Positions 25,052 through 26,407 of a DNA stretch of 64,000 nucleotides are shown here, piece after piece. The notes beneath the pieces are model-generated. The model did no database searches, had not been told where the DNA came from, and saw nothing but the letters and a program-made list of their open reading frames with translations. Where the stretch lies: positions 9,009-73,008 of the forward strand of contig MQRK01232473.1 in NCBI GenBank assembly GCA_001938485.1, in the 5' to 3' direction. Numbering within the stretch: the first letter of the stretch is position 1; every line of letters begins with the position of its first letter. The stretch is from Girardia tigrina (Eukaryota). Position numbers and translations under genes: made by a program.

Positions 25052-26407
25052 GTGCTCAGTAAAGATATCAGTGATGATTTGCTCGATTCATCAAACGAAT
25101 TAACCTCAATCAGAGATAATAAAACAAATTACGACCTCTTTGAAGCAGAAATTAATTCTGATGGGAAAAATCTCATCCCCGTCTTCATTCGATTGATGGA
25201 TGGACGGATTATAAGCATTGATGAAGCTGTCAGTACGATAGCAGATATTAAAGAAAAAATATGCGAAAAAGAGAGAGTACCCATTCATTTTCAACAATTG
25301 ATATTCCAGGGTAAGTGCTTGGAGAATAACCAGTCAATAGTTGATTGCGGTCTCTCCAAATACGCTACAATTGAATGTGTGGGAAAATTGCTGGGTGGAA
25401 TGGATCTACCAGAAGAGGAACCACAGATCACTCTGGAACAATCAGGGCAACTCAGTTCAATGAAATTCCTGAAGTTTGTCCTACAAAAAAGAGAAGACAA
25501 ACGGCAACTAACTTTAGCCTATAAACGACTATTGGATTCTGACATCCCTAATGTACAATGGTGGGGTTTGCACCAGGATTATCAAGATAAATACGAGGAT
25601 TTATTGGCAAGTTTCAAGGTGCTAATGGAGCATTACGATCAGGCCGGGGATCTGGAGAAAGCGGACAAATTGCAGAAAGAGATGGAGAAACTGAACCAGA
25701 GAGAGGAGGCGGTGACGGTTTTATACGAAAAGCGAATGCAAGTGAAAGAAAAATTAATCTCAGGACGGGAATCAAAAAAGATACATTCTCTGCAGAAGTC
25801 AGAGAAAGTAGATTCGGAGGATGCATCATCAAATAGCACAGGAGATTCGGTTAGCTCTTCGAAAAAGAGGAGCTTGACCAGGATGGAGCGCATCCAATTA
25901 CCCGTATTTGGAGGAGCCAACAAGGAATATGAAGCTTGTAAAGCGGCCTTCAAAATATGCGTGGATGAAACCTCTGCATCGGATCTTGAGAAGTTGCTGT
26001 ACCTGAGGAAATATTTGAAAGGAGAGGCGCTGAACCTAATAGAATGTCTTGGATTCAGTGCAGCAGCTTACAAAGAAAGCCTGTGTAAGCTCGAGGCCAG
26101 ATATGGAGGTCCAGACCGGATCTATGCATCCATTCATGAGGAAATCCGGGATTTCAGACTGCTGAATAACATGAATGTGCAGGGACTAGACCGGTTGTTG
26201 TACCTACTTGAAAGCCCTATCGTACGGTTGAAGGATTTGAAGAGGGATGAAGAGTTGAGACCTCGAACACTTTATCAAAACATCATATGGAAAATGGGAC
26301 GAGGACTAATTCTGGACTGGCATCGTTACTGCGAAGATCACGAGAAACCAAAAGGTATTGTGCAGCTAAAGTTGTGGCTCGAACGAGAGATTAGGTTGCA
26401 ACTTTGA
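25052..26407 (+). CDS. Ubiquitin-like domain (25175-25399) fused to BEL/Pao Gag (DUF1759-like)
   Basis: VFIRLMDGR..TIADIKEKI..QQLIFQGKCLE..TIECVGKLLGG|M, then a coiled region and ERIQLPVFGG..AF..KLLYLRKYLKGEALNLI..Y..L.ARYG. Confidence 0.85.
   Translation: MLSKDISDDLLDSSNELTSIRDNKTNYDLFEAEINSDGKNLIPVFIRLMDGRIISIDEAVSTIADIKEKICEKERVPIHFQQLIFQGKCLENNQSIVDCGLSKYATIECVGKLLGGMDLPEEEPQITLEQSGQLSSMKFLKFVLQKREDKRQLTLAYKRLLDSDIPNVQWWGLHQDYQDKYEDLLASFKVLMEHYDQAGDLEKADKLQKEMEKLNQREEAVTVLYEKRMQVKEKLISGRESKKIHSLQKSEKVDSEDASSNSTGDSVSSSKKRSLTRMERIQLPVFGGANKEYEACKAAFKICVDETSASDLEKLLYLRKYLKGEALNLIECLGFSAAAYKESLCKLEARYGGPDRIYASIHEEIRDFRLLNNMNVQGLDRLLYLLESPIVRLKDLKRDEELRPRTLYQNIIWKMGRGLILDWHRYCEDHEKPKGIVQLKLWLEREIRLQL

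Follow-up and report, generated by a model that had tools for sequence, protein, structure and literature searches.

A ubiquitin-derived domain directly ahead of Gag in a lineage of BEL/Pao retrotransposons of Girardia tigrina

The BEL element of the window

The window analyzed here (64,000 nucleotides of the AT-rich Girardia tigrina genome, contig MQRK01232473.1, positions 9,009 to 73,008 of the forward strand) contains a copy of a BEL-type LTR retrotransposon, referred to below as family A, in which a ubiquitin-derived domain immediately precedes Gag. The features of this copy are listed with the evidence for each.

22860..22864, + strand: 5-bp target site GATAC in a Gypsy-like element (5-bp duplications of solo LTRs; uninterrupted Gypsy-like copies reach 22864)
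22865..23725, + strand: 5' LTR of 861 nt, TGTT...TTCCA (copy comparison)
23728..23745, + strand: primer-binding site (PBS) TGGTAGCAGAG..., which we take to match the 3' end of initiator tRNA-Met (sequence)
24011..24502, + strand: upstream cargo 1, a leucine-rich-repeat (LRR) fragment of a host-like gene (Pfam LRR_4, E=1.5e-12)
24503..25174, + strand: upstream cargo 2 (middle segment) and acidic linker (copy comparison)
25175..25399, + strand: ubiquitin-derived domain, ending in VGKLLGG (Pfam, alignment scores, AlphaFold/Foldseek)
25394..25402, + strand: Gly-Gly-Met join, predicted cut site of a host deubiquitinase (sequence, conservation among copies)
25400..26404, + strand: BEL/Pao Gag, a helical N-terminal region followed by DUF1759 at 25907-26332 (Pfam, genome matches, model)
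26660..27352, + strand: downstream cargo in the place of pol, with a CCDC149 coiled-coil fragment at 26924-27334 (Pfam PF09789, E=5e-22)
27353..27472, + strand: end of the element in the window copy (copy comparison)

The interior of family A measures 3.7 kb and forms a single frame through the LRR fragment, middle segment, linker, ubiquitin, Gag and CCDC149 fragment, with cargo 1 in frame with ubiquitin and Gag in unbroken copies. At least 46 DNA matches to the window stretch were found in the genome, at 87 to 100% identity (40 of 179 candidates scored). The LTRs run from TG to CA, the element has a PBS and a polypurine tract, and 5-bp duplications flank seven full-length solo LTRs among the 20 LTR loci inspected. 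Locus L221, a copy with both LTRs, retains the 3' LTR; the window copy lacks about 110 nt past 27472, the polypurine tract and the 3' LTR, which other copies have. It was inserted at 22864 into the Gypsy-like element, of which about 420 nt are missing along with the 3' end of the BEL copy. Its frame is decayed as well, with copy-specific stops at 25043-25045 and 26405-26407 and more breaks downstream, and the region of its start codon lies inside an N gap (23838-24008).

A search for pol (protease, reverse transcriptase [RT], RNase H and integrase) in the window element and in L221 returned no match, the CCDC149 fragment being what follows Gag; this agrees with the preliminary description of the locus, which had seen no protease in the element. 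Family A is therefore regarded as a non-autonomous derivative, and an autonomous partner carrying its LTR was not found among the 20 LTR loci.

The enclosing Gypsy-like element (17359-22864 and 27473-28260, with a repeat at 17359/28124) is also decayed; it contains an RT/RNase H-like stretch, an integrase and extra open reading frames, as well as a weak match to an RNase T-type exonuclease (E=0.087) at 22128-22835. Elsewhere, the window has Mariner/Tc1 transposase fragments at 29118-29852 (-), 33993-34382 (-) and 13299-13895 (+), and a 489-residue open reading frame at 30564-32033 (+) that by eye resembles a hAT/Buster-type transposase and has no Pfam match at E 0.1. A 180-residue frame at 9821-10360 (+) includes a stretch that looks bromodomain-like by eye and is possibly a host exon. 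Short MITE-like elements with long terminal inverted repeats lie at 3216-3765, 7828-8732, 14431-14742, 43863-44277, 60271-61025 and 63186-64000.

The ubiquitin-derived domain takes up 75 codons, the last two being GGT GGA at 25394-25399, and is followed by ATG at 25400. The preliminary description had marked 25175 to 26407 as one feature, a 75-residue ubiquitin-like domain with LLGG and Met before a BEL Gag. Sequence and Pfam bear out the join itself; the limits have to be revised, as 25175 is an Ile codon and not a start, and the stop at 26405-26407 closes the Gag frame in this decayed copy only. The profile search that it had proposed recovered ubiquitin (PF00240, E=6e-14) and DUF1759 (E=1e-14) in the same 453-codon frame, the latter marking the Gag as BEL type. 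In the AlphaFold model of the window protein, residues 1 to 74 form a beta-grasp (pLDDT about 80) and the helical Gag begins after residue 92, with the Gly-Gly-Met site in the low-confidence segment between them (residues 75 to 92). Foldseek aligned the domain model with ubiquitin at a TM of about 0.9 and about 35% identity; the domain has both the beta-grasp and the C-terminal Gly-Gly of ubiquitin.

Identity to host ubiquitin is about 34%. Given that the domain reaches a local alignment score of 129 with host ubiquitin and of 52 with the FUBI-S30 frame of the host, we consider it a diverged ubiquitin; an origin from FUBI, which had been entertained at the outset, was rejected on account of this lower score and of the fusion partner, which is Gag rather than eS30. 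Of 30 loci inspected, 28 cover the join and 26 of these have kept it intact, so it is not due to chance.

Ubiquitin-Gag joins and upstream cargo across BEL families

Separate genome searches with ubiquitin and with Gag yielded further families with the same arrangement. They were sorted into 11 groups (A, the window family, and B, C, C2, D, E, F, F2, G, G2 and H); since C/C2, F/F2 and G/G2 are related, these correspond to about 8 distinct families, and the join is thus common to about 8 to 11 divergent BEL families, whose ubiquitin-Gag regions are about 20 to 45% identical. A tree of their ubiquitins had no well-supported branch. Families B, C, E and G2 have protease, RT, RNase H or integrase parts (a protease region in B, C and E) and share the join, which consequently does not stand in for a protease that is absent; the idea that the absence of a protease gave rise to the join, suggested by the window copy, was rejected for the same reason.

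We also drew a sample blind to ubiquitin, comprising 70 of 150 DUF1759 matches (the top 30 and 40 picked by hand on longer contigs, with four duplicate rows). Ubiquitin lies upstream in 43 of these 70 loci, and in 32 of them the computed tail has GG. Of the 27 loci without ubiquitin, 24 are cut short by a contig end, an N gap or a 5' truncation; the other three are L269, where a ubiquitin tail is left, L257, with a decayed ubiquitin-like stretch, and L285, which is truncated. All 70 match the Gag of these ubiquitin-Gag families at 43% or more.

In their DUF1759 Gag, their TGT..CA LTR with a 5-bp duplication and, in relatives, the order protease, RT, Peptidase_A17 RNase H and integrase, these elements are like other BEL/Pao retrotransposons (Belpaoviridae). 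The RT of G2 is, by eye, about 50% identical to that of the Flow family NC-63 (PMC3118150). They differ in that in-frame cargo and ubiquitin stand before Gag and, in the window's family, in the loss of pol, whereas two outside BEL Gags (P0004 and P0005) have Met directly at the start and no ubiquitin. The word "ubiquitin" does not occur in the main text of the BEL/Pao survey of de la Chaux and Wagner 2011 (PMC3118150).

Several ubiquitin-Gag families have a coiled coil downstream that replaces all or part of pol (also at L090 and L190); it is CCDC149 in A and PF21771 in P0002. The Gag of B, D and E contains CCCH zinc fingers and that of C a CCHC-like knuckle, and neither is present in A (loci L087, L090, L186, L188 and L200). 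In a family G copy (L196:2617-3381), a fragment of a proteasome non-ATPase subunit (PF10508) lies downstream of the integrase tail.

Word-index searches returned 1, 4 and 4 proteins (6,380 to 8,000 candidates scored). Six of the nine belong to the families described here or to close kin of theirs, and the window's genome contains the family of P0157 at 80 to 90%. A scan of metagenome contigs did not find a relative, and the Atlas gave generic DUF1759 clusters alone (at 0.80) and, for cargo 2, weak, low-recognition matches. When a query containing ubiquitin was compared with 1.84 billion representatives, polyubiquitins dominated the matches, and the result is uninformative on range. One contig from an RNA library (X7 record 27; n=1) spans the join and, as DNA carry-over is possible, lends weak support to transcription across it.

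The in-frame sequence upstream of ubiquitin varies by family, with LRR in A, SH3 and actin in one B copy, HSP90 in E and PRMT_C in H. A family E protein (P0003) has a fragment of RNA polymerase subunit N (PF01194) stacked before HSP90, ubiquitin and Gag. Family A varies internally too; L004 has a 5' extension, and L020 and L023 have a longer LRR and lack the middle segment (cargo 2). That Gag tolerates varied upstream cargo, as had been surmised, therefore holds both within family A and between families. The cargo is likely of mRNA origin. Of the nine copies containing both PBS and join, two (L066 and L004) are open between them, with a frame that sets in right behind the PBS and continues across cargo, ubiquitin and Gag. 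Between C and C2, DNA identity is 85 to 95% from the join into Gag and 55 to 72% over ubiquitin and the adjacent cargo, from which we conclude that cargo and ubiquitin were exchanged together, as one block, at the join; both have Gly-Gly-Met.

Conservation and selection of the ubiquitin domain

From 201 loci, those covering the join were reduced to 137 distinct copies by removing duplicates and three host ubiquitin genes. At no fewer than three places (L104 to L106), the host also has genes that hold precisely two ubiquitin units and end in a tail of one residue. GG is intact in 124 of the 137 copies and is kept by the majority of copies in all 11 groups; a lack of GG conservation among copies, which the preliminary description had named as a refutation, was thus not borne out. 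It was lost in 4 of 46 copies of family A (42 intact, one diverged relative included), 1 of 2 of C2 and 1 of 2 of G2; because such loss is expected of dead copies, retention within a single family says little. The next residue is Met in 120 of the 137, Ser in 13, Ile in 3, Arg in 1 and Pro in none, so that what selection has kept is GG followed by a residue other than proline. In E, F and H this residue is Ser, and hence there is no start codon at the join.

Eleven of the 76 positions are conserved in every one of the 11 groups (F4, I13, K27, I30, E34, P37, Q41, K63, L73, G75 and G76), including the tail L73-x-G75-G76. Multiplying the family identities by hand gave an expectation of under one such position, a figure that treats the families as independent although they are related. 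Other positions are less constant: R74 is kept in 4 of 11 groups, V70 in 6, I44 in 7, R72 in 8, and R42 and K48 in 9 each. Families A and D have lost R42, R72 and R74, all three of which H and F keep. The invariant K63 falls in the region of 25358-25360 of the window; E34 and P37 are likewise invariant, whereas K48 and the I44 patch are not.

Upstream of the domain, GG was found in no family. Polyubiquitin remnants precede ubiquitin in H, G and G2, and their joins have decayed to RLRGN, RLRGS or RLRGV; they provide an internal control in which only the GG on the Gag side has persisted. Ubiquitin has no Met of its own at its start in B, C, C2, D, F and G.

Compared with host ubiquitin, pS ranges from 0.64 to 0.98 and pN from 0.05 (H) to 0.42 (A), values that place synonymous sites at or near saturation. 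In E and H, the ubiquitins are 94 to 96% identical to that of the host with synonymous sites saturated. For family A, changes among 58 distinct copies were split into those shared between copies and singletons. Shared changes gave a pN/pS ratio of 0.39 in ubiquitin (p=0.004 against neutral), 0.41 and 0.27 in two parts of Gag, 0.63 and 0.56 in two parts of the cargo (p=0.04 and 0.017) and 1.36 in the linker, while singleton changes were near neutral (0.54 to 0.92). The difference between shared and singleton changes in ubiquitin was marginal (p=0.049); the domain has neither shared stops nor shared frameshifts. The cargo of family A is not fully neutral. Together, the saturated synonymous sites and the shared pN/pS ratio of 0.39 indicate that the domain is under purifying selection and is not a neutral relic. 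A neutral relic, for which a dN/dS near 1 had been anticipated, was rejected on these two grounds and on the presence of the conserved protein in about 8 to 11 families. By sequence, ubiquitin-Gag elements are a real, selected and lineage-wide variant of BEL/Pao.

Predicted cleavage by host deubiquitinases and its alternatives

Architecture, selection, the conserved tail, cargo variety and the block swap at the join are all observed in the genome. What they probably reflect, in our judgment, is that the captured ubiquitin was selected as a site at which a host deubiquitinase (DUB) cuts after Gly-Gly, releasing a Gag of native length. Translation would start upstream, near the PBS, and produce a single polypeptide of cargo, ubiquitin and Gag; a host DUB would cut after G76, during or shortly after translation, leaving a Gag that begins with Met or Ser and never with Pro. 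The freed Gag would package the element RNA, the cargo-ubiquitin piece would be let go, and the sole demand on upstream captures would be an open reading frame. By eye, the first conserved helix of Gag lies about as far from the join as it does from the N terminus in two BEL Gags without ubiquitin.

Cutting of ubiquitin fusions, linear as well as internal ones, takes place during translation, Pro being the one next residue that blocks it, and in the ubiquitin reference technique an internal ubiquitin with a polypeptide upstream is processed in this way (PMC3692480). Most DUBs reject human Fubi, which shares 36% identity with ubiquitin and has a non-polar residue ahead of its GG; USP16 and USP36 alone cut it (PMC10611586). 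Since the window domain is equally divergent, it might be cut slowly or not at all; and given its 34% identity and the non-polar residue before its own GG, a FUBI-type enzyme (USP16/USP36-like) would be a more probable cutter for family A than one of the bulk DUBs. Host FUBI ends in SLKGG, as do families B, C and D, and a USP16/USP36-like activity should therefore exist in the host.

Other roles for the conserved domain can be weighed against the same data. Rather improbable, in our view, is that the fusion is cut but was selected as an aid to Gag folding or expression, with cargo tolerance a later by-product. Conservation extends over the entire fold beyond the tail (F4, I13, K27, I30 and Q41), autonomous families have ubiquitin as well, and such an aid has been proposed for ubiquitin-ribosomal protein fusions (cited in PMC3692480); yet the domain sits inside the polypeptide, in family A as much as about 400 residues past the start codon, it has no Met of its own in six groups, and in L269, one decayed copy, the ubiquitin tail alone stands before Gag. 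The key product might instead be the released cargo-ubiquitin-GG, conjugated to host proteins or serving as a ubiquitin or DUB decoy and bringing host-derived domains along. The near-identity of E and H to host ubiquitin despite saturated synonymous sites, the K63 of all groups and the constraint on the cargo are in its favor, but the cargoes are partial domains, unrelated across families, and 7 of the 11 groups no longer have R74 and 4 no longer have I44. E1 reads ubiquitin through R42, R72 and R74, and with all three gone from A and D, a conjugatable C terminus is unlikely in these families; for the lineage as a whole we hold this explanation to be improbable.

That the domain stays uncut, as an integral N-terminal part of Gag for proteasome or ESCRT targeting or at the particle surface, we regard as very unlikely. 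Uncut ubiquitin-like domains usually lose their GG, whereas here it persists while the I44/V70/L8 binding patch decays, and it is from the upstream polyubiquitin joins that it has gone; on the other side stand the conserved fold residues and a divergence like that of Fubi, left uncut by most DUBs (PMC10611586). Cutting at the join by an aspartic protease of the elements themselves, acting in cis or in trans, would suit B, C and E, which encode a protease region, but it would need no folded ubiquitin under purifying selection and family A has no protease, so we give it very little weight. To a neutral one-off capture amplified along with the element we assign next to none: most copies are decayed and their singleton changes near neutral, but against this stand the number of divergent families, the conservation of the protein at saturated pS and the absence of shared stops and frameshifts in family A. 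Alongside cleavage by a host DUB, our preferred explanation, we consider doubtful the further proposal that the join is an evolvability device, a 5' plug-in slot that takes up host gene fragments, exchanges them between families at the point of cutting and yields them as free cargo-ubiquitin proteins, of which those with the near-perfect ubiquitins of E, F and H would be attached to proteins of the host or block its DUBs.

The closest analogs are cytopathic pestiviruses (BVDV Osloss and CP Rit), in which a captured ubiquitin before NS3 lets cellular hydrolases make the authentic N terminus and, in CP Rit, a host fragment, S27a, lies upstream of ubiquitin (PMC8310069, PMC13517609). Captured host ubiquitin and upstream host fragments are common to both, and the ubiquitin-Gag join likely works like the pestivirus insertion, cutting in the BEL elements being a prediction. 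Unlike the recent, sporadic and independently acquired pestivirus insertions, however, the BEL ubiquitin is old, lineage-wide and diverging, and precedes a capsid protein. Ubiquitin-ribosomal protein and FUBI-eS30 precursors are likewise linear fusions of a ubiquitin(-like) domain ending in GG with a following protein, and the tail of Fubi is, like that of family A, non-polar before GG (PMC10611586); the BEL fusion differs in being encoded by a mobile element and ubiquitin-derived, with cleavage predicted. Burro, a giant Gypsy element of planarians, is also an LTR polyprotein that gathers host domains, including a Ubi2/SUMO-like motif (PMC6431247). It differs in being a Gypsy element with an N-terminal Gag and the motif after it, and section 7 of PMC6431247 does not mention a role in GG cleavage. 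No BEL element with ubiquitin before Gag was found in the literature searched, a scope outside which lie Repbase/Dfam notes and subscription journals; prior annotation may exist.

The general view is that LTR retrotransposons use their own protease on the polyprotein and that Gag starts from a Met of its own. In the present case, an entire BEL lineage seems to have fixed a host-ubiquitin cut site ahead of Gag, an arrangement that in pestiviruses is sporadic only. If the site is cut, this would explain how in-frame host fragments are carried without damage to the capsid, and the elements would depend on a host DUB, a possible point of host control. The families would also provide a natural series of ubiquitin variants, from 34 to 96% identical to that of the host, for mapping what DUBs need as opposed to what E1 needs.
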